64,000 bases of DNA, taken from positions 2,418,001 through 2,482,000 of the forward strand of contig CM035353.1 of NCBI GenBank assembly GCA_020137815.1. Direction: 5' to 3'. A program made the translations under genes and the position numbers. The notes under the pieces are model-generated. The model was given only the letters and a program-made list of their open reading frames with translations. It had not been told where the DNA came from and searched no databases. This document shows positions 19,515 through 64,000 of the stretch, piece by piece. Each line of letters opens with the position of its first letter. The stretch's first letter is position 1. This stretch comes from Hormiphora californensis. Taxonomy: Eukaryota; Animalia; Ctenophora.

Positions 19515-20066
19515 ATGACAACGAGGACTTTCGGAAGGACATTGATACGAAGATGTGCTTTAGAAAGCGAGTTTTGATCGAAAGGACGCTTTAAAGGTCC
19601 CCCCAAACTACTATGTCCCTTGCTGTGCGCGACCGGATTTTAGACGGCCATAGCTCCACCCCCTGATAAGATAGAGACTTAAAATTTGTTTTCTAGGGAG
19701 ATCATATCGAGTTCTTTGTACAAAACAAATTTCAAGTCTCTATCTCATCAGGGAGTGGAGTTATGACCGTGAGAAATTTTACAAAACCCGAGTGAGGGAC
19801 ATAGTAGTTTGGGGTGTACTTTAGTATAAGTCGATGGAGATAAACACTTTTCGCTCAAAAGCGATTTAAATGTCTGGCTCCAGAAAGCAACAGGATCCTC
19901 AGAACACTAGCAGGAAAGATGGCAAAGGAGCATGGGAATAACTACCGTGAGGCAATAGAATACCTCAGACTCCGCATCCGGTTCGCAATCCTGAGTGTGT
20001 CTGATAGCACTGCGAGGCACGCGAGTGAAAGTCCATCATGCACCCATAAACAATGTGGACCTTAAC
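19515..20066 (+). pseudogene. Degenerate 3' end of a CRE-like (RLE) non-LTR retrotransposon, interrupted by a MITE
   Basis: GLAPESNRILRTLAGKMAKEHGNNYREAIEYLRLRIRFAIL..CLIALRGTR aligns with the C-terminus of the 54638-55427 protein (GVGPEMDRAIKKTAKLIENKHGEIYSEALAAIRRRLRFCLLIATLRSLRGCR). Confidence 0.7.
19595..19820. mobile_element. Kolobok-type MITE
   Basis: TTAA|AGGTCCCCCCAAACTACTATGTCCCT ... AGGGACATAGTAGTTTGGGGTGTACT|TTAG. An internal inverted repeat shares the CCTGAT(A/G)AGATAGAGACTT motif. Confidence 0.75.
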
Positions 20067-21669
20067 CTCATCTGAACATTTGTTAGAACATTTGTTAGAA
20101 TTTATATTTTGTACAGTGTGTAGGCATGAAGATATGGAGGCCCGAAAAACGTGTTGCGACGCGCATTTTGCGACGCGCATGCGACGCGCACCAAAGTGGT
20201 CATTTTTGGAAAAATTGATTTTTTCGATTTTTTTTAAAGACAAGTTTTGACAAGTTTTGACAAGTTTTTGAAAAGTTTCTAAATAAATCAGGTATGGGTC
20301 GCCCCATCCCCATGATATACATGAATAAAGATGTTAGTCTTCTTGGTTGAAATGCGCTACAGCCCTCTCATGCGCGCGTCCCCTTGTAAAGAGGCCTGCA
20401 GCGTATGCCGAGCTTCTTGGAATTTAACTTTCTACTTTCTAGGTTTTTGAGTTAAAGTTCAATCTGAAAAGTTGTCATGCGCTGCCGTCTGCAGCCTACC
20501 GACAATTATGTGCGTTTCTGATTGAAGAAGATTAGCCTTTTTCCCACGATTTGCTAACGTTTCTATTTAATGCCACCTGCCTGGCGCCGCAACCCCATCT
20601 GAGCACAAATGGGGATAGCGATGCCGCCATGCAGATGGCCACTAAGGAAGACCTCATGCGGTGAACTGCTGTATGGAGTGCGGTGAAAAAGTATGAAATT
20701 GCCTTAGTTGATGAGTCCCAGAGACCCTTCACACATGGGATTGAGCTGCTCAGGTACGCTCCAACATCTCAAAATCTTTTCTCTCCAGCGGGGTCGTTAA
20801 CGATACATGACTATCCATGTCTGGAAGGTTTTTCACGAATTAGTTCTAAACGGCACTGGTATCTTGTGAGCACACCTGTCTTGGTACCAGAGCAATGGTC
20901 CCCCGCTACAATTAGCTCGCTCAAAAATCCATATCTGGCCCTTATGACTTATCATTCGATTTTAAAGGAGCGCACCCTAGTAAAGGTCGCGCGGGCAATT
21001 ATGGTGAAAATTGGCCAATCTACAAACATTAATTCGCGAATCCTCAACAATATTGGCCAATCTTCGCTGGATGCGCAAATAGATTGGCCAATCTTCGCTG
21101 GCCATGGCTGAATTTCACAGCTGTTTCGCGCGCACACAACCCAAGATAACTGGTTTCGCGCCCCACGTCTATGCCACTCGATGCTCGCCAAATACCCCGG
21201 TAAGGGATCAGCCGATGATGCTATTTGAATAATGTTACTTTGCTGGCAACATGCTTCCAATGAGATTCAATAACATGCAGCAATGTGAATTGAGATGATC
21301 CAATTATGAAATGTTACTTTTCGGTAATCTGGTACAGTCTTATCGGTGCAGTGATACTATACTGATGTTAGGGATCAGAATGATTTGAAAAGTAGACACC
21401 AAGAGGATTGCAGAACACCCGGAATTTTGATTTTAGCATAACGGGAACCATTTCCTCCCCATGGCGCCCTTTTTAGGGACCAAAACGAGGTCAGGGCCAG
21501 AGGGTACTCGCGAAATACGGTCTCTGCGCCCCCAGCGACTCTCTCGACAGACACAAATTGGGTCGAGGAGAGTTAAAACTTCCTCAGAAATATTCAGGTG
21601 TTTTTGAATGACCGATATGAAAATTCAATTAAATGATATATATACCAACTAAAATTTAAAATTACAAGA

Positions 21670-22216: not shown

Positions 22217-22316
22217 NNNNNNNNNNNNNNNNNNNNNNNNNNNNNNNNNNNNNNNNNNNNNNNNNNNNNNNNNNNNNNNNNNNNNNNNNNNNNNNNNNNN
22301 NNNNNNNNNNNNNNNN
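22217..22316. other. Assembly gap (100 N)
   Basis: Run of exactly 100 N. Confidence 1.
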
Positions 22317-25300
22317 TATCGACCAACACACATGTCGACCCGTGTGAATGCAACGAATATACTGCTTGAAGAAATGAATTGATACATGTGTACGGGGTAG
22401 TGCAAAAACCATTATTTTGTGTAATCACTATCATTAACTTAATATTATATCAGCCCAGGCATGCGCCATTTAGTATTAACCGAATCTAACTACCCCTTTT
22501 CATGAAAGCCGTACAAACAGACTATTTTTTAATGTTCAGTAACAATCCGTCTCAAGTACCGAGTTCTTTAGCACGCACGAAAGAGCGCTGCCCAATCTAA
22601 AATGTTATATTGTAATGTATATCAGAGATAATAAATAATAAATAAAGTGTTTCGCAAATAGATTCCTTGTTTCCTACCTGTTTAATGCCAGCTGCAATTT
22701 TACGGTATCTACACATAACCAAATCCTAATTAATTAACTAGTGACCTCCCAGTGATAGCCCCCAACATGCTCTGAACAACCCCTTATCAACCAAAGAGGT
22801 AGGAACATACGAGAATTATTGAAATGTCCCGCTATGCTTATTTAATGTGCGACCCCAACGCCGATGAAACCAGTGCCTGAAGGATGCAAGGAGAAGCTCT
22901 GGTTGGTCCGAGTACTATGCATGCCACACCATGTACATGCCAACGATGAAAAAGGCAACCTTCACATAACCTACGATATAATATTTAATTTACAGATTGT
23001 ACTTAAAAAACGTTAATTTATTTATTATTTATGGCAACTATTATTCGTCGCTTATCTTTGGTGACAAATCAATTACAATAACTCGAACCCGGACAATAGC
23101 TCAAGAGCAGCCTCAGAGGCACGGTAACACCGGCGGCCAAGGAGCGGAACAACCTGATTATAATTTATTCTCATCTGTTTCTCAAACTTAATTCAGCTGT
23201 TGTAAGTGATATTATTGCGATGTGAAGATACGAACGGCATAGCATATACCTGATAATAATCATTCATCAAGAAAGCGATTCGTGACTTATCAGCTCAGCC
23301 AAAAGTGATGAATTGCTACAGCATAACACAACTAACCGCGTAGAGATGAACCCGTTTATGATGATGAGTTAGAAGAGTTACTATCGACTTCTAACGCCCT
23401 TGAAATGGCCAGAGCAAGGAGCCTACTTTACAACCTTCCCCGATGGATCTAGAGGCCTTTAAAATACGATTTATTTCACTTGTTTACTTAACTAAATCAG
23501 ATTGCCAGGAGGCAAATGAACAAGTCAGGTAAGCGTCCGGAAGAATGCTACAATAATGGAAAAAGTGTGGTCAAGATGAATGCTGGAAAGAAAACATATA
23601 AAAAGTAGGGCTAAAAAAAGCCTGTGAAAAAAGCCGCACCCACCAACATAAAAAGCCATCACTCAAAATCAGGGTACTTTGCTTTTTTTAGTGGATGGCC
23701 CCCCCCAGTCTACCATTCAATGTTTTGTCATATCATGGGGCAGGGTGCGGTACTACCCTAAATTTCCCTGTCATTCAGAAAACGGCACGGATCAGACGCA
23801 ACATCCCCCCTGCCTCCCACAGATACCCTGTGCCAGAGACTCGCAGAGGAAGTTATACTGCCCAGTTACATTCAATTTTTATGTCATATCATTGGGTGGG
23901 GGCGGCGGGAGGGGAGGCGGGGGGATTTCACCCTAAAATTCTCTCCCTTACTCACTAATTCATTCTCCATTTAATAATATCCCCGCCTCCTTCACTTTGA
24001 GGAAACTTCGACGCCCAAGACGCTACACCCTGCCAGCCCTCCATGATGATCCCCTGCGAGAACGAGTATATTTGCCCAGCTCTACCATCAATTTTTACTT
24101 CACTATTGGGAGGGTATGCCTACCATGCGACTATAACAGACTAAACAAAGAGGGTAATGAAAAACACTTCATCTCTATCCCTCTATCTCTCTATCTGCTT
24201 CTTGGTTGATATCTATGAAAAAACTAAACAATCTAGATATTTGAGCTCAAAGTGAACAAATTATTATTACTCAGGATTGCAAGCGAAGGCTACAAGGTCG
24301 TTCTTCGCCGACGCGCACGACGATGGCATATCAATGTTGCCCCCCCCCCTAAGTGACGAATGACGATTGCCAGAAAAGGGACACATGAGTAAGAACCCCT
24401 TAGAGCAAACAGATAGAAAAGTCATCACCTAGCGTTTATTAATTATCTGAAGACCACGGTTCTCAGACTCAGTATGTATGTTATCCTTCAAATATTAAAA
24501 AATTTGTACCATCCGAGGTATTATATTGCCCACCTGTGACATCACACAATTGAAGTCATAAATAGTGACCATAGCCACAGCACAGGCGCTGAAGAGGAAT
24601 GGGGAGTCAGAGGTCCGACTGTATTATGTTACAAAAGGTTAGACTGAGAGAAACAATGGAGAAAGGCTAATGGTGCGAGCAAAATGAATTATGATCATCA
24701 ATATTCCTAAATGACTAACTTGGAAATAACTTCTCTTGATGAGGTGACTCCCATGTTATGGCAGCAAGGAGCTGCTGTAGTTGTTTACTTCCTTTTTAAA
24801 ACAGCAACTCGTTTAACCAGACTTTAATATCAATTTATTTTATTTAAAACGTTTTTTAGCTGTGCCCCCACTAAGGACACACTAGACTAAGAGTTCGGCG
24901 AAAATAAAGAATAAACCCATTCTATGAGATTGGGTAATCTGCAAGTCGCCAAAAGAAAAAACCCAAAAAAGAAAATAAGCCCACCGTGGCGCCCAGGTTG
25001 AGGACGCCTCGGGGTTGCGCTGGAAAGCAAGAATGGATTATGTAGTGAAAGCGGCAACCAACGCAAACTCACCTCTGATCCTCATGCACCAGAAACGCAG
25101 ACTCCCTCCCATGGAAACACGTCACATCCGGTTAAGACCCCTGATCCTATCTACAAACCAATAACGTAACTATAACATCGTCTGCGACATTCCTGACAGC
25201 CAGAGGGGTGATGTGCGATAGAGATGCAGCAAATAAAAAAGACCATTCCAGAGTCGACATACGATATATTTGAGCGAAACAGTTGAAAGTCATCGAGACC

Positions 25301-43300: not shown

Positions 43301-46300
43301 AGGACCAGGGGAGGCAGTCAGGGAACACAAGGCCCAAACCACTAGACGACCAAACAAGGGGAAAACATCGAACGACCAGTGATGTGCCAGAGCAGGTGGG
43401 GAGATTAACACTTAGTTTAATATTTATTAAATTTATGTAATTTAATACCTTGTAATAACAATGAGCAGGAACTTGCAGCAGTGGTTCGAACTACTATTAT
43501 ATGTACTGTTCGGCAGATACCTGTGCCGGGTTTCATTCATTCAATGTTAAATTAGACCAACCCGCAACACTTGTGGTCAACGCGCATTTGTCCGTAGGAA
43601 TCCTCCGTTTTGCAGGGGTTTTGCGCGATTTTGTTAGGCGATTTCAGGCGAGCGTGCACGCTTGCGTGTGCTGTCAAACCACCCTGGAAAATTGTGTAGC
43701 ATTGTACGGTAATCGTTCTAAAGATCATTTTGCTACCCAGAACTTGGGGAAAGTGCGGCAGGTTTGGACAGCACGGCATCAAAGTTCGTCCTTCCTATAG
43801 CCCAAAAAATGGCTTCTGTTCAAAGCGAACCTAAATTTTGGTTGATCTCAAAAGAAAGCTAGGGGGCTCTAGAGATTACTATGCAACCTTTCCATCGGCA
43901 ACCGGTTCAGATGCGGTCATGTATCAAAGCGACATTTATGCTAAAAAAGCGCTGTCCAGCGCTGGTTTTACACGTAAAAACGCGCAACGAGGTTAGATCT
44001 TGGTCAAAAATGAGCCGTTCTACTGCGCGTTTTCTTCAAAATCACTAGATCTCGAGAGCCTATCGGACATGACCACATAGTGCGCAAGTTGACTAAAATA
44101 GTTAGAGATAAACGGAAAAACAAAGAAAAAGAAACTCACGATTAAAACGCCCAGAGCTCTCAAACCAGCCTCTTATGTGACACAAATTCCGATTCACAGG
44201 TTCGGCTGGGGTTGTATATTAGAGGTGCTTTAACCTCAGTCCGAGTATGCCTAAAAATCAGGAAAACTTGTAAGTTTAAGATACTTTGGAAAACAACTGT
44301 TACCGGCTTAAAGTAATGGGGTCGGTCTGGAAATTTTTTAGCGGGGAAAATAAACTACACCAACTTGGCAACGGGCTGGCCCAGCGCGGATAAGGCAGCG
44401 CTTTAAATGGGCAACCCATATGTCTCTTTTAAATAACTGTCGATTTTTTAGAGTTTTCAAATTTCTTTAATGACTATAAGACCGGTCCTGATGAGATAGA
44501 GACTTGGAATTTAGAGGTTACGAAGATCTTGATAAGCTCTTCCAGAACCTCCAAATTTCCAAGTCTCTATCTTATCAGGAATCGGAGATATGGACAAATT
44601 TTGGTAATTCAGGGGTGTGGTGTGACTAGACTTTTGTTGTGATTCATCTTGTGAATATTCAGTGTTCAGTTTATGGTTTCATTAACTTATTAACTATTTA
44701 TTAATTTATTTGACAGTATGCTGTTTTTTTATTAACTTATTAACTATGTATTAAATTACAATGACAACAGAGGACTTTCGGAAGGACATTGGAATACGAG
44801 ATTGCTTTAGAAGCGAGTTGTGATCGAAAGGACGCTTAAAGGTCCCCCAAACTACTATGTCCCTTGCTGTTCGCGACGCGATTTTAGGACGGCATAGCTC
44901 CACCCCCTGATAAGATAGAGACTTAAAAATTTGTTTTCTAGGGAGATCATATCGAGTTCTTTGTACAACAAATTTCAATCTCTATCTTCACAGGGAGTGG
45001 AGTTATGACCGTGAGAAATTTTACAAAACCCGAGTGAGGGACATAGTAGGTTGGGGTGTACTTAGTTATAAGTCGATGGAGATAAAACTTTTCGATAAAA
45101 GCGATTTAAAATGGCTGGCTCAGAAAGCAAACAGGATCCTCAGAACACTAGCAGGAAAGATGGCAAAGGCAGCATGGGATAACTACCGTGAGGCATAGAA
45201 TACCTCGACTCCGACATAGGTTCGCAATCCTGAGTGTGTCTGATTAGCATGCGAGGCACCGAGTGAAAGTCCATCATGCCACCATAAACCAATGTGGACC
45301 TTACCTCATCTGAACATTTGTTTAGAAACATTTGTTAGATTAATTTTGTCCAGTGTGTAGGATGAAGATATGGAGGCCCGCAAAACGGGTTGCGACGCGC
45401 AGTTTGCGACGCGAATGCGGACGCGCACCAAAGTGGTCACTTTTTGGAAAAATTGATTTTTTCGATTTTTTTAAAGACAAGTTTGCAAGTTTGACAAGTT
45501 TTGAAAAGTTTCTAAATAAATCAGGTATGGGTCGCCCATCCCATGAATTTACCATGAAATAAGTGTTTAGTCTCTTGGTTTGAACATGCGCTACAGCCCT
45601 CCCCTCTCATGCGCGCGGTCCCCCTTGTAAGAGGCCTTGCAGCTATGCCGAGCTTCTTGGAATTTAACTTTCTTACTTTCTAGGTTTTTGAGTTAAAGTT
45701 CAATCTGAAAAGTATGTCATGCGCTGCGTCTGCAGCCTACCGACAATTATGTGCGTTTCTGATTGAAGAAGATTAGCTTTTTCCCACGATTTGCTAACGT
45801 TTCTATTTAATGACACCTGCATGGGCCGCAACCCCATCTGAGGCACAATAAGGGGATAGCGATGCCGCCATGCAGATGGGCCACTAGGAAGACCTCATGG
45901 CTGGTGTTGAAATGGGTATGGAGTTGCGGTGAAAAAGATATGAAATTGCCTTGTGGATGAGTCCCAGAGACCCTTCACACATGGGATTGAGATGCTCAGG
46001 TACGCCCAACATCTCAAAAATCTTTCTCTCCGCGGGGGTCGTTAATAACGATACATGACTAATCCATGTCTGGAAGGTTTTTCACGATTAGTTCTAAAAC
46101 GGCACTGGTTCTTGTGAGCCCACTGTCTGGTCCAGAGCCAATTGTCCCCGATACAATTAGCTCGCTCGAAAAATCCATCTCTGGCCCTTATGACTTATCA
46201 TCGAGTTTAAAGGAGCGCAACTAGTAAAAGGGGGGGGGGGGAGTGGTCGCGCGGCAACTATGGTGAAAATTGGCCAATCTACAAACATTAATTTCGCGAA

Positions 46301-53360: not shown

Positions 53361-53709
53361 CTTGCATTGTGGTAACCGTTGCCGTGCATCCAACGCGACT
53401 TTCAGGCTTGCATTTTAAATAATTTTGCGCGGCTTTAACAGTTTTAGCGCGGCTTTACAATTGCGCGTTCTGAATAACAGCGAAGATTGGCCAATATATT
53501 TGCGCATCCAGCAAAGATTGGCCAATATTGTTGAGGATTCGCGCATTAATGTTTGTAGATTGGCCAATTTTCACCATAATTGCCCGCGCGACCTTTACTA
53601 GGGCAGATGTGGAATTCCCTACCCCGTGCAGTGAGAGTTGAAACAGTCCCTTGGGTCCTATTTTACTTTACGGAACACGTTTTCGGGCCTCCATATTTAA
53701 TTTACTTCA

Positions 53710-54219: not shown

Positions 54220-54637
54220 TCTCAGTCATCATCTCAGTCATCAACGGGAAAACGAGAACTCAAATGTGCGGAAATGTTGTTTTTTTTGCGACTTTTTTGC
54301 ACGATCAAATGAAACGCGCGCTTCAGAAAAAAGCCAAGCGCGGCAGAGCTGTTTTTTTAGCGCGTTGCATATTTTGGCAGCGTTGGGCGGTGTCGGTTAA
54401 ATTGTCGCGATTTCAAAATCAAATTGAAAATTTATCCAGCCAGATTTTGACTCCGCTCCAAACTTTGGCATGCGCTGCAGACCCCAAGTGCGCGCGTTTT
54501 CCACGGCTTCTAGGGCCTGTAGCATAGGCCAACTCCAAACTCTAACTCCCGTCCCAGCTCAAGCCTCACTTAGAGTTAAGTAGCCCTAACCCTAATAGGG
54601 ATCCCTAAAAAAGTTCAGTATTTACACAGCGTTTACA

Positions 54638-55427
54638 CAGTTACAATCACTAAACCAAGAACCTGGGGCATCGTCTTGGCTGACAGCAAGACCCATCGAA
54701 GCACATGGACATCACCTGACCAAACAAGAGTTTGTCGATGCGATGCACCTTCGATTTGGATTACCGTTTCTCGATCTCCCCTCCAAATGCCCATGTGGGT
54801 CCAGTAACAGTGCCGATCACGCATTGTCCTGTCACAAAGGTGGTTACACAATCTACAGACACGACCGCCTGAGAGACAACTTTGCTGATATCTTATCCTA
54901 CGCTGGTGTCAGGTCTATAGAAACTGAAAAACTCCTACAACCATGTGAGGATTACGACCAAGAAATGCAGCAATATCCTTGGGCAAATACAGACAGAGAC
55001 GCCCGTATGGACATCGTATGCATGGGATTGTGGGCTCCTGACCAGATGTCCTACATGGATGTCAGAGTCTGTCACCCGATGGCAACTTCTTATCTCAATA
55101 TCAAGCCATCATCTCTGTACAAAAACCACGAGAAGTCCAAGAAGACCTGTTACATGAGACGAGTCCAGATTGTCGAGGGTGGGACCTTTTCTCCACTAGT
55201 GTTTACCAATTACCACAACAGGTGGTGTTGGCCCTGAAATGGACAGAGCGATTAAGAAGACAGCCAAACTGATTGAAAACAAACACGGAGAAATCTACAG
55301 TGAGGCTTTGGCGGCAATCAGAAGGCGGCTCAGATTTTGCCTATTGATAGCCACTCTAAGGTCACTAAGAGGATGCCGTACAAAGTACGCCCCTACAGGA
55401 TTGGAAAATATGGACTTCAATATTTAA
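54638..55427 (+). pseudogene. 3' end of a CRE-like non-LTR retrotransposon: CCHC knuckle + restriction-like endonuclease
   Basis: GASSWLTARPIEAHG...EFVDAMHLRFG, CPCG...DHALSC, RHDRLRD, RMDI...DVRV.HP...HEKSKK.CY..R....EGGTFSPLVF. A 7-bp insertion at ~55203-55209 frameshifts FTTTGGVGPE. Confidence 0.85.
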
Positions 55428-56696
55428 AACCTGTGTGAGACTTTATTTATGTATGGAGGCCCGAAAAACGTGTTGCGACGCGCATTTTGCGACGCGCATG
55501 CGACGCGCATGCGACGCGCACCAAAGTGGTCATTTTTGGAAAAATTGATTTTTTCGATTTTTTTTAAAGACAAGTTTTGACAAGTTTTGACAAGTTTTTG
55601 AAAAGTTTCTAAATAAATCAGGTATGGGTCGCCCCATCCCCATGATATACATGAATAAAGATGTTAGTCTTCTTGGTTGAAATGCGCTACAGCCCTCTCA
55701 TGCGCGCGTCCCCTTGTAAAGAGGCCTGCAGCGTATGCCGAGCTTCTTGGAATTTAACTTTCTACTTTCTAGGTTTTTGAGTTAAAGTTCAATCTGAAAA
55801 GTTGTCATGCGCTGCCGTCTGCAGCCTACCGACAATTATGTGCGTTTCTGATTGAAGAAGATTAGCCTTTTTCCCACGATTTGCTAACGTTTCTATTTAA
55901 TGCCACCTGCCTGGCGCCGCAACCCCATCTGAGCACAAATGGGGATAGCGATGCCGCCATGCAGATGGCCACTAAGGAAGACCTCATGCGGTGAACTGCT
56001 GTATGGAGTGCGGTGAAAAAGTATGAAATTGCCTTAGTTGATGAGTCCCAGAGACCCTTCACACATGGGATTGAGCTGCTCAGGTACGCTCCAACATCTC
56101 AAAATCTTTTCTCTCCAGCGGGGTCGTTAACGATACATGACTATCCATGTCTGGAAGGTTTTTCACGAATTAGTTCTAAACGGCACTGGTATCTTGTGAG
56201 CACACCTGTCTTGGTACCAGAGCAATGGTCCCCCGCTACAATTAGCTCGCTCAAAAATCCATATCTGGCCCTTATGACTTATCATTCGATTTTAAAGGAG
56301 CGCAGATGTGGAATTCCCTACCCCGTGCAGTGAGAGTTGAAACAGTCCCTTGGGTCCTATTTTACTTCGGTTCCAGACAAAACACCTGTTCGTGGCTACC
56401 GGGTGGAGCATAGTTACTCCTTGATTTACTGCAGAAATGATCCGAGTGTTTTCCGTGAGATGGGCGATTCATGAATTATGTTTTCCTTTCTATCAAGATG
56501 TGGCTGATCCTTATATTAAGAACAACTGACTTTTCATATCTGAGTGTTATATTTGTGAATGTTTATGAATGTTTGAAGGGTAGACGGAGCTATGTCGAAT
56601 AGGGTGTCAAAGACAATTAGAGGTTACTGGTAAACAAGGTGAGAGATAGAAAAAAGGGTTTTATTGTAATTGAGGTGTATCTACGTCTACAGTGCC

Positions 56697-59669
56697 ATGG
56701 TGTATTATATGTGCTGCGGTACGAAATTTAAGAACCAGCGGATGTGGAAAAGGCACCGGGGTTCTACACACAACGACAAAATGTTTAGTTGTGGTATGTT
56801 AAACACAACCTTTCCCGCTTCAAATCAGCGAATTGCAATGTACATTTACCAGATCCATGTAAGTAAAGTTACAATTTTCAGTGAGATGTGGGATCAGTTT
56901 CAAATCGGACAACGGACTACGAGTCCACAAGTGTGTTGCCAGCACAATGGTGTTTAAGTGTAATAAGTGTGATGCCAAGTTCCCCCTGAAAGATTCCGTA
57001 AGTTACACAATACACTCCTATCACTTACCAGCTCATTTCCTTTGTATTGATTTGCAAATAGTATGTTTTCCTCCCATTTTGTAATACAGTAATGGGAAAT
57101 TAAAAAAGGTCCATGATTTTTGGTCATTCTGTAACCACTCCCTCCTTCTGTCCGAGCCTATCTACATTTCCCATAACCCAGTTTTTCATTAGCTTATCTC
57201 AGGGTGAAGGAATTATTAAATTTATTCAATGCAATGTAATTAAAGTGATATGCCCCTAGTAGTTGCCAACTGCCCATTACATTAATATTGCAGTTGAAAC
57301 GACACATAAGGAGAGTTCATGAAGGTGTGGGAGAAGGAACTTGTTCCAAATGTTGTGGCCGTTTCAACACAAAAATCTATGCAAAAGAGTAAGTTCTTGC
57401 GTGTTACAATGTAAATGATGTACACATATCATGCCAATTGCCAATAGTAGTATGTAATTATTAGCATTGTGTATGTGCTATATTCAGCTGTACTCACTCT
57501 ATGTCAATGTATATAAAAGTAGTTACTAGTTGTGGATTTGGGGTATTATTTTATGTCATAACAATTGAAATCATTTCCAGGCATGAGAGACGGTGTAACG
57601 GTGGTGATGGTCAAGGTCAAGGTAAGATTGCAATATGGAAGATGAACTTTTTAGAAAATTTGATATTATATTAGAGTAATATAGTCGGACCCCGATTTAA
57701 CGGCCCCCGATTTAGCGGACAAAATCCTTTCCCCCTGAGGGTGACGTTAAAAAAATGTGTAACAAGAGTTTTTCAATGCCATTTCTCAACAAATTTCAAA
57801 TTTCTTGGGATCTTAAGAAAGGGGGGATAGACCCCTTTCATTCGAGAAGTAGGATTTATCATAGGTATGCCGTATGGTTCTTTTTCGTCTGATTTATTTG
57901 TTTCAGGAATATTCAAGATGAAGTATAATTCAGTGACTTACCAATCTGTCAAGGCTAAATTTGGCCAAGTGGTTGGTGGCATCGATGGTTTGTTTAAATT
58001 ACAATTGCACCATAACCACAATGCTGTTCTAATTAATTCGAACCTGTATAAGCAGGCCGGGTATTGGAGTTTTCTCAACGATGTTTCGCTGTTTTCCAAC
58101 TGTTACTCTGTATAAGGTTATTTTTTAATTTTTAGTTACCGCTATTTGGTGGAGGTTGTTAATAAGTTTGTGTATGTTTTACTTATTAATTTAGATGTTC
58201 AAATGATGTAATTGTGCAGGTGGAAGAGGAAGCAAAGATAATGATATGGACATTGACATATCTGCCCCTATTGGTATTGGTATGGACACAGAGACACACA
58301 TGGATAGGGACACAGGTATTAAATCTGGTGCCTGGACAAGTGAATAAGTAGTGATCTTCAAATTTGTAGTATTAATACTATTTGCCTATGTTATTAGTTT
58401 ATTAATTTAGATGTTCAAATGATGTAATTGTGCAGGTGGAAGAGGAAGCAAAGATAATGATATGGACATTGACATATCTGCCCCTATTGGTATTGGTATG
58501 GACACAGAGACACACATGGATAGGGACACAGGTATTAAATCCGGTGACTGGACAAGGGAATAAATAGTGATCTTCAAATTTGTAGTATTAATACTATTTG
58601 CCTATGATATTAGGTCTATGAATTACAATTGACAATGTCATCTTGAACATGTAGAACTGATACTGATCAGCATCAGTCCGGATACTCTAAAAACTCTTTA
58701 GTATTTACAAAACAGAACAGTAGTTCCCGCTGTACTGAGGGTAGACTCTCCAAACTAACAGACTCAAAACTCCTTATGTTTATAGATAACGAGTTTGTTG
58801 TCACTGGTGCAACCGTAACTACCTCTGCAGGGCATGATGTGTTCGGTTAGTTATTTTAAATGAAATTGAGTGCAATTAACTTTGCACCCAGACACATCTT
58901 AATCATTGGTTGTGTCAATCCAGCTGTGTATTGAAGTAAGTCAACATTCCAAACTTTCCTAGAGCGAGCCGAACGGGAGATACGGGGACAGGGGATCTGG
59001 CTTAGCGCTGATGTTGTGAACTGGGCTTTGGATATTATCGTGCCCAAAGAAATCAATGTTATTGACTCGTCACTATATCAGGTAAATCATCATTAACCAT
59101 TCCCGTGTATTTTATTCCATTCACCTATTGTGAGTGTGAAACTTTGGTAATAATGATCCCATGATAGCTCTTTACAATTGTAATTTTTCCGATAGATATA
59201 CAAGGCAAATGGAGAAATACCAGATTGGGCCAGTTTAACGTGGAGGCAAGCTGTTATGGATGGGCAGCATTCCCTATTGCCTGTGTGTGAACAAAATCAT
59301 TGGATACTGCTTGAGTTCGTGGGGGGTCTATGCCACGTTTTCGATTCCATGGCTGGGTCATTGACAATTAGCTCGATATTGAGCAACCTGAATTACAAAT
59401 GGCAATGGTACGAGATGCCCGTCCGACCCCAAACAAATGGTGACGACTGTGGGGTGCACGTAATACAGTTCGCCAGCTGGTGCTCGGGGCACCCACTATC
59501 TGTATCAATGGTTAATGGAAGTATCAGGGAACAAGTGTGGGACATCATAAGGAGGGTACGTGTAACATGTAGTGAAGGGGATGAGGATAACATGGAGTGG
59601 CCCGAAGAACCATACTTTGTCGGTGTCACCGGAAATATACCTGACACAGATGACAACAAATATTTTTAA
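56697..59669 (+). CDS. C2H2/C2HC zinc-finger + Ulp1/SENP-like (peptidase C48) protease, ~397 aa, 9 predicted exons
   Basis: GT-AG exons 56697-56793, 56882-56997, 57294-57388, 57581-57621, 58220-58315, 58436-58531, 58786-58845, 58963-59081 and 59196-59669 join without stops. Four finger-like units (e.g. FKCNKCDAKFPLKDSLKRHIRRVH) are followed by WLSADVVN...NHWILL...VFDSM...PQTNGDDCGVHV. Confidence 0.8.
58183..58615 (+). repeat. 216-bp tandem duplication containing a 96-nt symmetric exon
   Basis: Exons 58220-58315 and 58436-58531 are identical (GGRGSKDNDMDIDISAPIGIGMDTETHMDRDT), phase 1-1. Confidence 0.9.
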
Positions 59670-59999
59670 ATGTGAGCTTGATAATTTTTATATTTATAGA
59701 GATTTGTAATTTTTTACTTATTTTGATATCAAATGAGCTGGTGGCTTTACATTTCATGGATATTTACGTAGCGCGCACTGCCAACCAACCTGAATCATTG
59801 GCGCGAAATGGGAAGCAAATGTCTACGCGCGCAACCTGGATCGATGGAACATTGATCAAGAACATACGAGACATCTCGAGAACACTCCAGATCCAAGTCT
59901 TGGTGACCCCCGCACATAGGTGTCCCTGCACAGGTGTCCCCTCGGCCCCAAAAAGGGTCTTTTCTTTCAATGGATTTCTTTTCACTGGACCGATTTATA

Positions 60000-60326
60000 T
60001 AATATACTGGAAAATACCCGAGAAGTTTTTCTGTCAACAGGAAGTGGGTGAAAACTGCGTCCGAGAGTTTTTGCACCACTCCCAAGCGGTTTGTCGACTG
60101 AGTCTGAAGATATTGGGAGGTAGGTTGAGGCCTTGTGAGTACTGGAAAATATCCGACATCAAATGCTGATGCTAATTGCATCAATATAATATCTCACAAT
60201 ATCTTCTAAACCGCATGGGCGTGGTGCAGAAACTCACGGAATTCAGATTATAGATTTGACTTCAGTGTCAATTTTGACCCACTACTTGGTGACAGACAAA
60301 GTTCTCGGATATTTTCCAGTATATAA
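60000..60326. repeat. Diverged inverted repeat between the protease and YqaJ genes
   Basis: Minus 60000-60092 (AAACCGCTTGGGAGTGGTGCAAAAACTC...CTCGGGTATTTTCCAGTATAT) matches plus 60208-60326 (AAACCGCATGGGCGTGGTGCAGAAACTC...CTCGGATATTTTCCAGTATAT). A third CGGATATTTTCCAGTA lies on the minus strand at ~60140-60155. Confidence 0.75.
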
Positions 60327-60407
60327 GAACCCCTACACTATAAACTTTCCCTCCCCACCAATTTTCAACTCCCATATCCCACACTGTATTTTTGTCAGAT
60401 AGCAGAT

Positions 60408-61493
60408 ATGTTTTCAAGACAAATGTTATTCCAAATATTCAATGATGGTGACGGTAAAATTATGAAAAAAGGTGAAATGGTAAGTTAAAACTGAAAAATG
60501 ACATTAGTAACTAGTGCCATTGTCCCAAAATGTAACGACGTGCATCTAGTTTTTTTTGAATAATTAAAAATTACATGAGAACACTATTATCAAAAATACA
60601 ATTGTCATAAACCCATATATCCAAAACAGGCATATGATGCAAAGGATTTGTTGATGTTCAACTTCAACCCCGCAACTAAAGAAATCAAGGCATCTGTTGC
60701 GGCTTCATACAAACCCAAAGCAGCCTATGAAGTCACGGTATGTTTAAAACTTACTCTAGTTGTTAATAATATTACTAAATTCGGACTCCGATTTACCAGA
60801 ACCCCGATGTACCGGGCAAAACTCTTTCCCCGAGCATGATCTCGGTAAATTGTAGTCTGACTGTTAGATAAATTGAAAAATGTTGATGATTTGAAAATGT
60901 TATCGGATTGTTTTACAGATCAAACTTTCTCAACGGATGGGATCGGATGATCTTGACATAGCCGATTGGGGATGTACCTGCACCACTGGAAGGAGAAAGT
61001 GCCACCATCTCATTCCTCCAATTTTGTTTGTGGTCAATGGAGGGGTCACTTGTACCGACGGCGAGTGCAACTGGAAGAAAGTGGGGGCCAAAAAAACATG
61101 CAACGCAGTACCAATAAAGGCGTAAGTGATAACTTTTTATGTACTGCTTTCATTAATTATATCTTAGATCATGTAAGTTAAAAATGCATAATAAATAAGG
61201 TTGTTATCCTTTCAGCAAACTTAGTCGAAAAGTTGAGAACATCAAGGCCAAATCAAGTTGCCCTACAAATCCGCATGAAATGGCGTTAACTTATAGTAAG
61301 AGGCACCCGGATAGCGGACTTGCCTTCATGACGATGGTTGATCCTGGACATAAATCGTCACCCATCGAGCAGTACTGCATGACACACCTTTTGAAATTGT
61401 GTAAGTTGTGTTTCTGGTCATTCATATGGATATTAGCAGTCTACTTCACTTTGTATCTCTCTCTCTCTCTATTTCTCTCTCTCTCTCTCTCTC

Positions 61494-61588
<95 letters not shown>

Positions 61589-63355
61589 TTACATATAATG
61601 GTGTATATTCCAGATGGTGATAACCATATTCTCTACGAAAAGTTGGGGAGTTTGAGAAATGATCATGTGTGGACCATGACCAATGAAAACAGTCAGTTGT
61701 CTGTTGAAGCTTTAAAGTGGAGAATCACAACAGAAATGTTTCACGAGGTTAACAACTTCATTGAGCACCACCATCAATCTGGTACTCCACCTACTGGTAT
61801 GTACTCTCTACAATTTTACAAGAATAGAAAAGTGGAATATTGGTTGTAACTGTAATTGCTATGTGCTTCGCTTATTCAATTAATGTTTCTTTGATGCTAG
61901 AGAGTGACGTTGAGCAATTGGTACAGAATGTAATTTTGAATCCTCGACGGAAAATACCCTATGCCGCCGCAAAGTATGAAGCGGACCACATCGACCAGGC
62001 AATGAAAGATTATGGGGAGGACGAGCAAGTCAAGGTATGAAATCTGCCCCCCCCCCCCCCCCCGGGCTCTGGTGACTCTCCACTCAACCCAGTCCCCTCA
62101 CCCCATTTTGACTCACCTAAGGTAACCCTCTATTCACAGTTCAAACCCCACATTTAAAACAAATTTTTCACCATTTTCACCTCAAATCCCCACACTCCCC
62201 CTCACCTAGTTTCCTCTCTTAATTTTCATCTCTAAATTTTCTCATTTTCTTACCAGTGGGCTAAGTGTGGTGTCATGCTAGGCCAACACGGATGCTTAGC
62301 CGCAACTTGCAATGGCATAACAGAGAATGGGCAGCTGCTGGTAGTGGAATGCCCTGAAAAAGCAAGGAACGGAGATGTAGGAGATATTTTACGCGACCAT
62401 CTTAGCAAATGTAGATCTTCCACGGAGGTATTATATATATAATATTTTGGGGGGGGGGGGCCCAGTGCCCTGATCTTGCAAATACCCAAAATGTTAATGT
62501 TGCTTATTTGGCAGCAATCTGGACATACTGAAGCAATTTCAAGTAACTGACGACCTTTTTTTAGGGAAAGAAGCAACTGCGGAAGCAAAATCTCCGCAAA
62601 TAAGGCAGATCTCATTGCTTCCACATTGCTTCCTGCCAAACTGAGACATAAATCAATCATTTGAGGAAGCAATTTCACGATTTTAAGGAAGCAATATGGA
62701 AAATTATACGTCCTATTTTTTGAAGATTTTGAAAATCGGGGCACTGGGGGGGGGGGGGGGGGGGTGGTTGTTATGTTCTAACCCTCCCTTTACATTAGTG
62801 CGGGGGCGTGCGAAAAACAGTCTAACCTGGCAAGGGGGTGCAACTCAAAAAATAACCAACCATACCCTGGGTTTCGGAAAAAGTTTGATTCCCCCCCCCC
62901 CCCATATTTTATATTAAATTTATGACATTAAAGTGGTTAATTGCTATTACATACCAATAATTAACTTGCATTTGATGAATGGCCAATTTGGACTCCAATT
63001 GTTACCCAATTCTCCAAGCTGGGAAGTCGGGTAGAATAGCAGAGTAGTACAAATCGATTTTATTATTACTTTTACACGTTGTTTCTTATTTTAGATGGTG
63101 AAAGGAATACCGTTCCTAGTTGGCGGGCCTTCTGGGATAGATGTTAATAGAAGTCACCGGCTGTATGACAAGATTCAGGGTGTCCTTCACCTATTTGGGA
63201 AGCCATCCCTCACCCTGATAGTCTGGTCATCGTATGGGTACTGGACTGATGAAATACCAGCTGAACCCGGCTATGAACTGAAACTGGAAAAATATATTCA
63301 GTTGTTCATGCTAGAGGTTGTGCCTGTTTTAAGGCGAATACAATGCAATGAATGA
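60408..63355 (+). CDS. SWIM zinc finger + YqaJ/lambda-exonuclease-like protein with substituted catalytic residues, ~438 aa, 8 predicted exons
   Basis: Exons 60408-60479, 60630-60737, 60919-61121, 61216-61400, 61614-61796, 61901-62034, 62257-62427 and 63095-63355 join in frame. Motifs: ASYK...YEV, CTCTTGRRKCHH...TCTDGECNW, WRITTEMF, CGVML...GCLAATCNG...LVVECP, HRLYDKIQGVL...LIVWS. Confidence 0.8.
61456..61588. repeat. Intronic (CT)n microsatellite
   Basis: Read directly; lies in predicted intron 61401-61613. Confidence 0.95.
62461..62748. mobile_element. Intronic MITE-like insertion with CCC termini, between G-runs
   Basis: CCCAGTGCCCTGATCTTGCAAA is inverted relative to TTTTGAAAATCGGGGCACTGGG, with internal GGAAGCAA repeats. 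Confidence 0.6.
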
Positions 63356-63488
63356 CTTTTTATACGTACTACTACTAGGCAATTTTCATTTTATAGTTGT
63401 ACCTGGTGATATGTTTAAATAATGATTTGTTTGATATTGGATACATAAACAGAAATGTACAATTACCACTACCAACAGCTAGCTAAAA

Positions 63489-63837
63489 ATGAAGTGTGCC
63501 GTGCCTGGATGCTCATTGGAAGGTACCAATCGTGTTCCAGTAAATCCGGTTTCGCGGCAGTCACTGACCAACATGCATGGGTATGTATGACATTGCATCT
63601 CAGTTAGGTGTACTTTAGTAACTCGGACCACATGATTTTTATTTTTAAAAATATTCTACTCTTTAATGATCAGATATGTCATATTAAATTTATCATATTT
63701 CAGGAAGGTCTTCACCGTCAATATGAGGACATGTGCGAAGCATATGGTTAGAAAACCAAAAGCAAAGGGAGTAATCAAGCATCCTGGAGCTAATATCATG
63801 AACAGCTGGACTGACGAAAATTACCTCTATCTTACAG
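63489..63837 (+). CDS. 5' exons of a THAP-like zinc finger / transposase (continues past the window)
   Basis: Exons 63489-63580 and 63704-63837 give MKCAVPGC...RVP...RTCAKH...WTDENYLYLTG. The C-x4-C/C-x2-H spacing is THAP-like (the usual Trp is absent). D....YLTG resembles the start of the HTH that precedes DDE_Tnp_4 domains. Confidence 0.65.
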
Positions 63838-64000
63838 GTAAGAATTTAAAATTTTATGCTGGTCCAACTAATTAGCAAATAAGAGCAAACTGTACAATAT
63901 TCTAATTTCTAGTACAAAGTTAGAGAATAGGGAGAAAACAGTTTCATTTCCACTTATTAATGGTATGTAGAAATGAAAATGTTTTGTTCATATCCTATAA

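Follow-up and report, generated by a model that had tools for sequence, protein, structure and literature searches.

A question raised by one locus of the ctenophore Hormiphora californensis is whether a cut-and-paste transposon of the ISL2EU type can carry, next to its YqaJ-family gene and its transposase gene, a third gene for a zinc-finger protease of the Ulp1 family. The locus lies at the end of the window, that is, of the whole 64,000-nt stretch analysed (GenBank assembly GCA_020137815.1, contig CM035353.1, positions 2,418,001 to 2,482,000 of the forward strand), and an earlier reading of the letters (hereafter the original prediction) had placed there an ISL2EU-like transposon with three tandem genes. 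We examined this locus using the window itself, contigs from four sequencing runs, protein searches and published papers. The sequence from 55455 onward is likely the left 8.5 kb of an ISL2EU-type cut-and-paste transposon, and all three genes probably lie inside this one element. The four contig runs derive from the same single sample, probably the window's own source, and are not mutually independent; runs X5 and X6, from another sample, contain 0.04 of the window's words and stayed outside the contig comparison. Contig depth, with one sample and no independent baseline, is used throughout as a hint and not as a measure of copy number.

Transposon ends and a short derivative of the element

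The features that define the left end of the long copy, and those of a short derivative found elsewhere in the window, are as follows.

55453-55454, plus strand: AT dinucleotide, presumed half of the target duplication; an identical AT precedes the copy at 20136
55455-55474, plus strand: left terminal inverted repeat, starting with GG; apart from a single 1-nt indel, its roughly 20 nt match the right end at 53674-53692
55455-56367, plus strand: left arm common to the short derivative, from the alignment; 56367 is the deletion breakpoint
55475-55597, plus strand: subterminal direct repeats, with a 10-nt GC-rich motif four times (55475, 55489, 55500, 55511) and, near 55568-55597, a 10-nt motif in tandem
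20136-20974, plus strand: left part of the short non-autonomous derivative, preceded by AT, from comparison with the copy at 55455
53606-53692, plus strand: right part of the short derivative, from the same comparison, with 63 nt equal to 56305-56367, followed by 24 nt of the right end and AT

The AT|GG terminus that had been proposed at 55455 (AT|GGAGGCCCGAAAAACGTGTTG) stood up well: its 21-nt left end matches three places in the window, where 100 shuffles give an expectation of 0.00, and the short derivative carries AT at both of its ends. In the copies at 20136 and 55455, the similarity starts exactly at the element end; upstream of it the flanks differ and have only TAT in common. Once its insert is removed, the short derivative is a 926-nt internal-deletion form of the long copy with both ends present. 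The aligned bases of the two are identical (839 of 839 over 55455-56304 and 63 of 63 in the right part), apart from one 11-nt repeat-unit indel, and the absence of any substitution in the 902 shared bases argues for a recent origin of the short derivative. A genuine and recently mobile transposon end begins at 55455. A right end followed by AT had also been predicted; it is indeed present, at 53673-53692 with AT at 53693, but it closes the short derivative and not the long copy. The flanks of the ends read T|AT ... AT|A, with T before AT in both left flanks and A after AT in the one right flank, and the letters around the short derivative are compatible with a duplication of AT, TA or ATAT alike. 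One match to the end pattern in metagenome contigs lay inside unrelated coding DNA and was taken as chance.

The subterminal repeats are likely candidates for transposase binding sites. Over 55470-55520, high-copy families with other GG-starting ends share the subterminal motif, as seen in run X1 from loose ends at 55470 and a depth of 2807 at 55509; these are putative related non-autonomous families. The left arm further contains pieces of other high-copy repeats (56122-56296).

Three genes on the same strand

Beyond the breakpoint at 56367, where the long copy goes on, lie three genes, modelled as listed here.

56697-59669, plus strand: gene 1, 397 aa, with zinc fingers, linker and Ulp1/C48 domain
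56697-56793, 56882-56997, 57294-57388 and 57581-57621, plus strand: zinc-finger exons of gene 1
58220-58315, 58436-58531 and 58786-58845, plus strand: linker exons of gene 1
58963-59081 and 59196-59669, plus strand: Ulp1/C48 exons of gene 1
60408-63355, plus strand: gene 2, 438 aa, with a SWIM-like CxC-x6-CxH pattern and a YqaJ-like domain
60408-60479, 60630-60737, 60919-61121, 61216-61400, 61614-61796, 61901-62034, 62257-62427 and 63095-63355, plus strand: exons of gene 2
63489-63837, plus strand: first two exons of gene 3 (63489-63580 and 63704-63837), with a C2CH THAP-like pattern; the gene runs past the window

The models comprise nine exons for gene 1, eight for gene 2 and two for the start of gene 3 (75 aa), which then leaves the window. 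As had been predicted, the three genes appear to splice in frame: all 16 introns (8, 7 and 1 per gene) are short and of the GT-AG type, the frames are open throughout, and the exons have a GC content of 45-46% against 27-38% in the introns. The splice sites of all three models were picked by eye, so that random choices of nearby GT and AG, which left the frame open in 5 of 5000 trials for gene 1 and 1 of 5000 for gene 2, are a weak control. The gene 1 model is better supported because its zinc fingers are completed across exon junctions, and that of gene 2 because a colinear alignment to a YqaJ protein spans four splice junctions; exons 5-7 of gene 1, the linker, are the least certain part. 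In the longest contigs over the exons (32 of >16,000 pieces), no alternative letters were found, which argues that the odd catalytic and contact residues described below are not assembly errors.

A 216-nt tandem duplication (58183-58614) gives gene 1 a second, in-frame copy of a 96-nt linker exon. Its two exon copies match exactly, its intron parts have five differing sites, and the contigs break at 58212, as expected of a real repeat. Host repeats and a CT microsatellite occur within introns of genes 1 and 2 (57681-57900, 60775-60870, 62450-62800 and 61445-61590) and leave the frames undisturbed.

Gene 1 encodes a predicted zinc-finger Ulp1/C48 protease

The assignment of gene 1 to a zinc-finger Ulp1 protease was confirmed by domain and structure searches as well as by finger patterns. 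A strict pattern gave a C2H2 finger at residues 59-80 and a C2HC finger at 88-108, a loose one a further finger at 32-50, and a fourth, N-terminal finger may be made out by eye. The last exon matches Peptidase_C48 (Pfam PF02902) with an E-value of 2.9e-6 and 27.7 bits against a curated cut-off of 20.7. With the protease exon, the search of PDB sequences returned the Ulp1-like SUMO protease 6dg4 (E 0.0048) and SENP2 (E 0.83), and the Atlas search returned C48 clusters (0.96; 28 of 30 matches). The catalytic residues H275, D290 and C325 and the oxyanion Q319 are all present, and none of them varies in an alignment of three sequences. By these residues and matches, gene 1 reads as a Ulp1/C48-family protease with an intact His-Asp-Cys triad.

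Its relatives are distant. A profile-library search with the protease gave three matches, of which P0001 was rejected as a spurious repeat match; the best true ones are 32-34% identical, with no close relative, and one of these two also has a weak RickCE-like match. A homologue search with the protease exon yielded 139 candidates, none at E 0.01, and a single-sequence fold of that exon reached a pLDDT (predicted local distance difference test) of 36 and gave no usable model.

Gene 2 encodes a predicted YqaJ-like pseudo-nuclease

The original prediction regarded gene 2 as a SWIM-YqaJ exonuclease gene, of which the YqaJ homology stands, the SWIM part is seen at the level of a pattern, and the exonuclease part is contradicted by replaced catalytic residues. 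The spliced protein shows 22% identity over 254 aa (E 4e-9) to a YqaJ-domain (PF09588) protein from a beetle, P0012; none of 1000 shuffles attained the alignment score of 141 (mean 49 +/- 6, maximum 78). On its own the YqaJ profile is weak on gene 2, with 9.9 bits versus 6.1 for the best of 1000 shuffles, and the assignment is carried by the pairwise alignment, with no single-exon Pfam match. A scan with lambda exonuclease gave near-identical proteins only, which were left out of the profile. In P0012 the YqaJ domain is fused to a Mutator-like transposase, and YqaJ alone is therefore not diagnostic of ISL2EU.

Four catalytic positions of gene 2, I281, N314, V324 and E326, correspond by motif to E85, D119, E129 and K131 of lambda exonuclease, which we take to be its catalytic residues. 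All 12 reference YqaJ proteins retain SPD and ExK, whereas gene 2 reads ATCN and VVE: Ile sits where the upstream Glu would be and is followed directly by an Asp, Asn stands for Asp, and Val and Glu stand in ExK. Gene 2 is therefore predicted to encode an inactive nuclease, or pseudo-nuclease. Because identity is as low as 22% and yet no stop interrupts the 438 codons, its divergence looks like an old, selected change and not decay, which points to long selection for a putative non-catalytic role.

The SWIM domain consists of the Cys/His pattern CxC-x6-CxH and has no Pfam match; a homologue search with the SWIM exon gave four candidates, none significant. Single exons of genes 2 and 3 had no match in Pfam, PHROGs, phages or Atlas. 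Upstream of gene 2, at 59800-59812, lies the motif TTGGCGCGAAA, which in our judgement resembles an E2F site.

Gene 3 is a candidate THAP transposase

The visible part of gene 3 has a C2CH THAP-like pattern, short and degenerate, with 32 residues between the Cys pairs, and its end resembles, in our view, the run-up to the helix-turn-helix (HTH) of DDE_Tnp_4 transposases. One contig extends 1563 nt beyond 64000 at gene depth, which leaves room for a DDE domain. Gene 3 likely encodes a THAP-DDE transposase.

Probable placement of the three genes in a single element

No right end (at most 2 mismatches in 13 nt) was found between 56368 and 64000, nor was a second left end or subterminal motif found ahead of gene 2. 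The protease gene has no terminal inverted repeats of its own: among the 25 longest of 41 inverted-repeat pairs, no long ones flank gene 1. Contigs over the three genes have an even depth (25-28 in X1; 16-18 in X3), roughly half of what the two-copy left arm shows (48 in X1; 37 in X3), and the gene region looks single-copy. The inverted-repeat survey also revealed a nested element between genes 1 and 2.

60002-60324, no strand assigned: high-copy miniature element with 56-nt inverted arms

Its summed contig depth is hundreds of times the gene depth, and over 60120-60289 (170 nt) it has at least 12 differences from the family majority. Since this nested miniature element has diverged while the short derivative shows no substitution against the long copy, the transposon is an old low-copy element that was lately still active or mobilised in trans.

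Comparison with known transposons

In the available text of PMC4482050, ISL2EU elements have terminal inverted repeats of 6-259 bp starting with GG, a 2-bp AT duplication in an A|AT|T context and a YqaJ second open reading frame (ORF); the transposase has THAP and HTH at its N-terminus and a DDE_Tnp_4 domain, and the two ORFs span about 4.8 kb. Table S2 of Han et al. 2015 (PMC4482050) gives 25 of 25 ISL2EU families a length of 746-7117 bp and lists nothing beyond YqaJ. The present element resembles ISL2EU of the PHIS superfamily (PMC4482050, PMC4122938) in its short GG-starting terminal repeats, flanking AT (at the short copy), YqaJ-family gene and THAP-like pattern at the N-terminus of the presumed transposase. 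It differs in having a third gene and at least 8.5 kb instead of two ORFs and at most 7117 bp, in its T|AT|A instead of A|AT|T context, and in its replaced YqaJ catalytic residues. The predicted ISL2EU membership thus held in part: the element is ISL2EU-like, and it is not filed as a proven member because DDE is unseen in the window and neither the A|AT|T context nor the two-ORF layout of about 4.8 kb is matched.

Ulp1 proteases occur on other transposons. Zisupton, likewise an animal DNA transposon, also unites SWIM and Ulp1 domains, but it does so in one large protein, with 8-bp duplications, another transposase family and no YqaJ. The P element, Zisupton and Mutator were each considered as the host element and rejected, as the ends and short duplication seen here do not fit their features. 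Ginger1 and Mutator/MuDR with Ulp1, as far as described in the available text of Bao et al. 2010 (PMC2836005), also place a C48 protease on an animal cut-and-paste transposon; in Ginger1, Ulp1 is fused to the transposase, sometimes with a PHD finger, whereas here it sits in a separate C2H2/C2HC-finger gene and in another superfamily. The Ulp1-bearing VANC of Kaonashi (KIU)/Vandal Mutator-like elements (MULEs), according to the available part of PMC13317346, is one of three genes and joins a targeting module to Ulp1, as here; these are plant non-TIR MULEs (that is, without terminal inverted repeats) with a VANC domain and DNA hypomethylation, and anti-silencing is shown there and drawn by analogy here.

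Ulp1 as cargo of ISL2EU was stated in the original prediction to be unfamiliar, and indeed neither the papers searched nor the 25 ISL2EU families of Han et al. 2015 contain the combination. A full-text search, with subscription journals, Repbase and Dfam outside it, found no paper with ISL2EU and Ulp1 together; for ISL2EU and SUMO it gave nothing beyond a buffalo-mastitis paper, as judged from its available part. The words 'Ulp1' and 'Peptidase' are absent from the text, figure content aside, of three supplements of Han et al. 2015, and no protease is named in the available parts of PMC4122938, PMC9179366 and PMC12730594. The third gene is an incremental novelty, Ulp1 cargo as such being well known, to which the zinc fingers and the predicted dead YqaJ add.

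Surroundings of the element

The insert in the short derivative is an unrelated element.

20975-53603, no strand assigned: element with 126-nt inverted arms starting with CCC and a duplicated CA; its length is inflated by a redundant assembly block

Its arms lie at 20975-21100 and 53478-53603. Once the redundant block is discounted it measures about 7 kb, in which no coding domain was found. With these arms and the 2-bp CA duplication it resembles animal EnSpm/CMC elements, and it is younger than the short derivative because it is inserted within it. The block at 23535-47126, which follows an N gap (22218-22317), is a noisy repeat of 1-21859 (81-85% identity, hundreds of gaps) and is an assembly artefact that inflates repeat counts. 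The third match to the left end, at 45372, lies inside this block and was for that reason rejected as a third insertion.

Each of the two insertions of the family follows closely, by 27 and 59 nt, on a stop codon that closes a retroelement ORF (54599-55454 and 19874-20135); the two ORF ends are related (35-39% identical by tblastx) and look like CRE-type restriction-like endonuclease tails. That two of two insertions follow such ORF ends may be chance or a target preference. None of 58 surrounding frames had a Pfam match; the surroundings are repeats, and no host gene was found.

Possible mechanism and alternative explanations

How the three products might act together can be approached by analogy. 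Our tentative model, which we consider possible but somewhat less than evenly likely, is a three-gene element with a zinc-finger-held protease that strips SUMO on its own DNA. Gene 3 would bind the subterminal repeats and cut and paste the element; gene 2 would be a partner that binds DNA or provides a scaffold without cutting, like the Myb/SANT partner in Harbinger; and the zinc fingers of gene 1 would hold the protease on the element's own DNA, where it would remove SUMO from host silencing factors first and possibly from the transposase complex too. Such removal would let a low-copy element stay mobile over a long time. An anti-silencing role of the protease is plausible by analogy: in plants, Ulp1-carrying Vandal/KIU elements escape silencing, with the function of the Ulp1 domain there unknown (available text of PMC13317346), and SUMO depletion activates transposons in fly ovaries (available text of PMC10363806). 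Protection of the transposase complex, a role in repair, or another modifier as substrate would serve nearly as well. We regard it as unlikely that the locus represents an ISL2EU-like lineage whose accessory exonuclease became a non-cutting scaffold and whose deSUMOylase is guided by sequence-specific zinc fingers, an animal equivalent of the anti-silencing VANC/KIU proteins of plants.

Several observations weigh against the three-gene deSUMOylating element. The right end of the long copy is absent from the window, a single gene-bearing copy is in evidence, and the element gathers insertions. The target context is T|AT|A and not the A|AT|T of ISL2EU. For gene 3, the THAP-like half of the predicted THAP-transposase is visible, but the window holds no DDE residue, and the gene has no Pfam, PHROGs or PDB match. 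Gene 1 reads WLSA (Ala216), in a register set by eye, at what we take to be the Ulp1 motif WLND, and N450 and D451 thus appear replaced. A PDB search with the WLSA-bearing exon gave no Ulp1 alignment to fix the register. The salt bridge that D451 makes with SUMO is essential in Ulp1, where N450 is also conserved (available text of PMC3216068). The label 'deSUMOylase' for gene 1 is weakened because the SUMO-contacting D451 position appears to be Ala.

This Ala would also fit a rather unlikely alternative, in which the element is the same and its protease acts on ubiquitin, NEDD8 or the element's own proteins, protecting or maturing the transposase-DNA complex or tuning repair, with no anti-silencing. 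The weak RickCE-like match of one protease relative points the same way, as does Ginger1, which carries OTU or Ulp1 and for which the authors propose a role in post-transposition repair (available text of PMC2836005). On the other side, the sequence search of known structures ranks a Ulp1-like SUMO protease first (E 0.0048) and SENP2 next (0.83), and a separate zinc-finger gene would fit chromatin targeting better than one-off processing.

Two further explanations, both quite improbable in our estimation, concern the element rather than the substrate. The protease might not be native cargo but a nested or neighbouring unit, with the end at 55455 being a fragment or part of genes 2 and 3 only. 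Several nested repeats have been taken up, the left arm holds the high-copy pieces at 56122-56296, and no second three-gene copy was seen in the window or contigs; against this, gene 1 is free of flanking inverted repeats, no second end or subterminal motif precedes gene 2, and the three genes are alike in strand, depth and intron pattern. It might also be that the long copy is stranded and immobile, perhaps with a DDE domain that is dead as well, its genes kept by the host and the short copy moved in trans by another family. The apparent single copy, the old nested insertions, the catalytic loss in gene 2 and the degenerate THAP would agree with such a domesticated cluster, and related high-copy families share the subterminal motif (the depth of 2807 at 55509). 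Domesticated transposon genes usually lose their ends, however, and here the left end is complete and exactly matches that of a freshly made derivative, in surroundings made of repeats where 0 of 58 frames had a Pfam match.

Ulp1 domains recur in unrelated transposons, and their role has been a standing question since 2006-2010. If neither the protease role nor self-mobility holds, the present element would merely be one more superfamily with a common cargo. If the element still moves itself, the nuclease activity of the second ISL2EU protein would be dispensable, and if the proposed mechanism is true, a zinc-finger-guided deSUMOylase would be a ready-made programmable SUMO eraser for chromatin. 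A stand-alone protease with ordinary zinc fingers, beside repeated end motifs, makes the role of Ulp1 in transposons testable.

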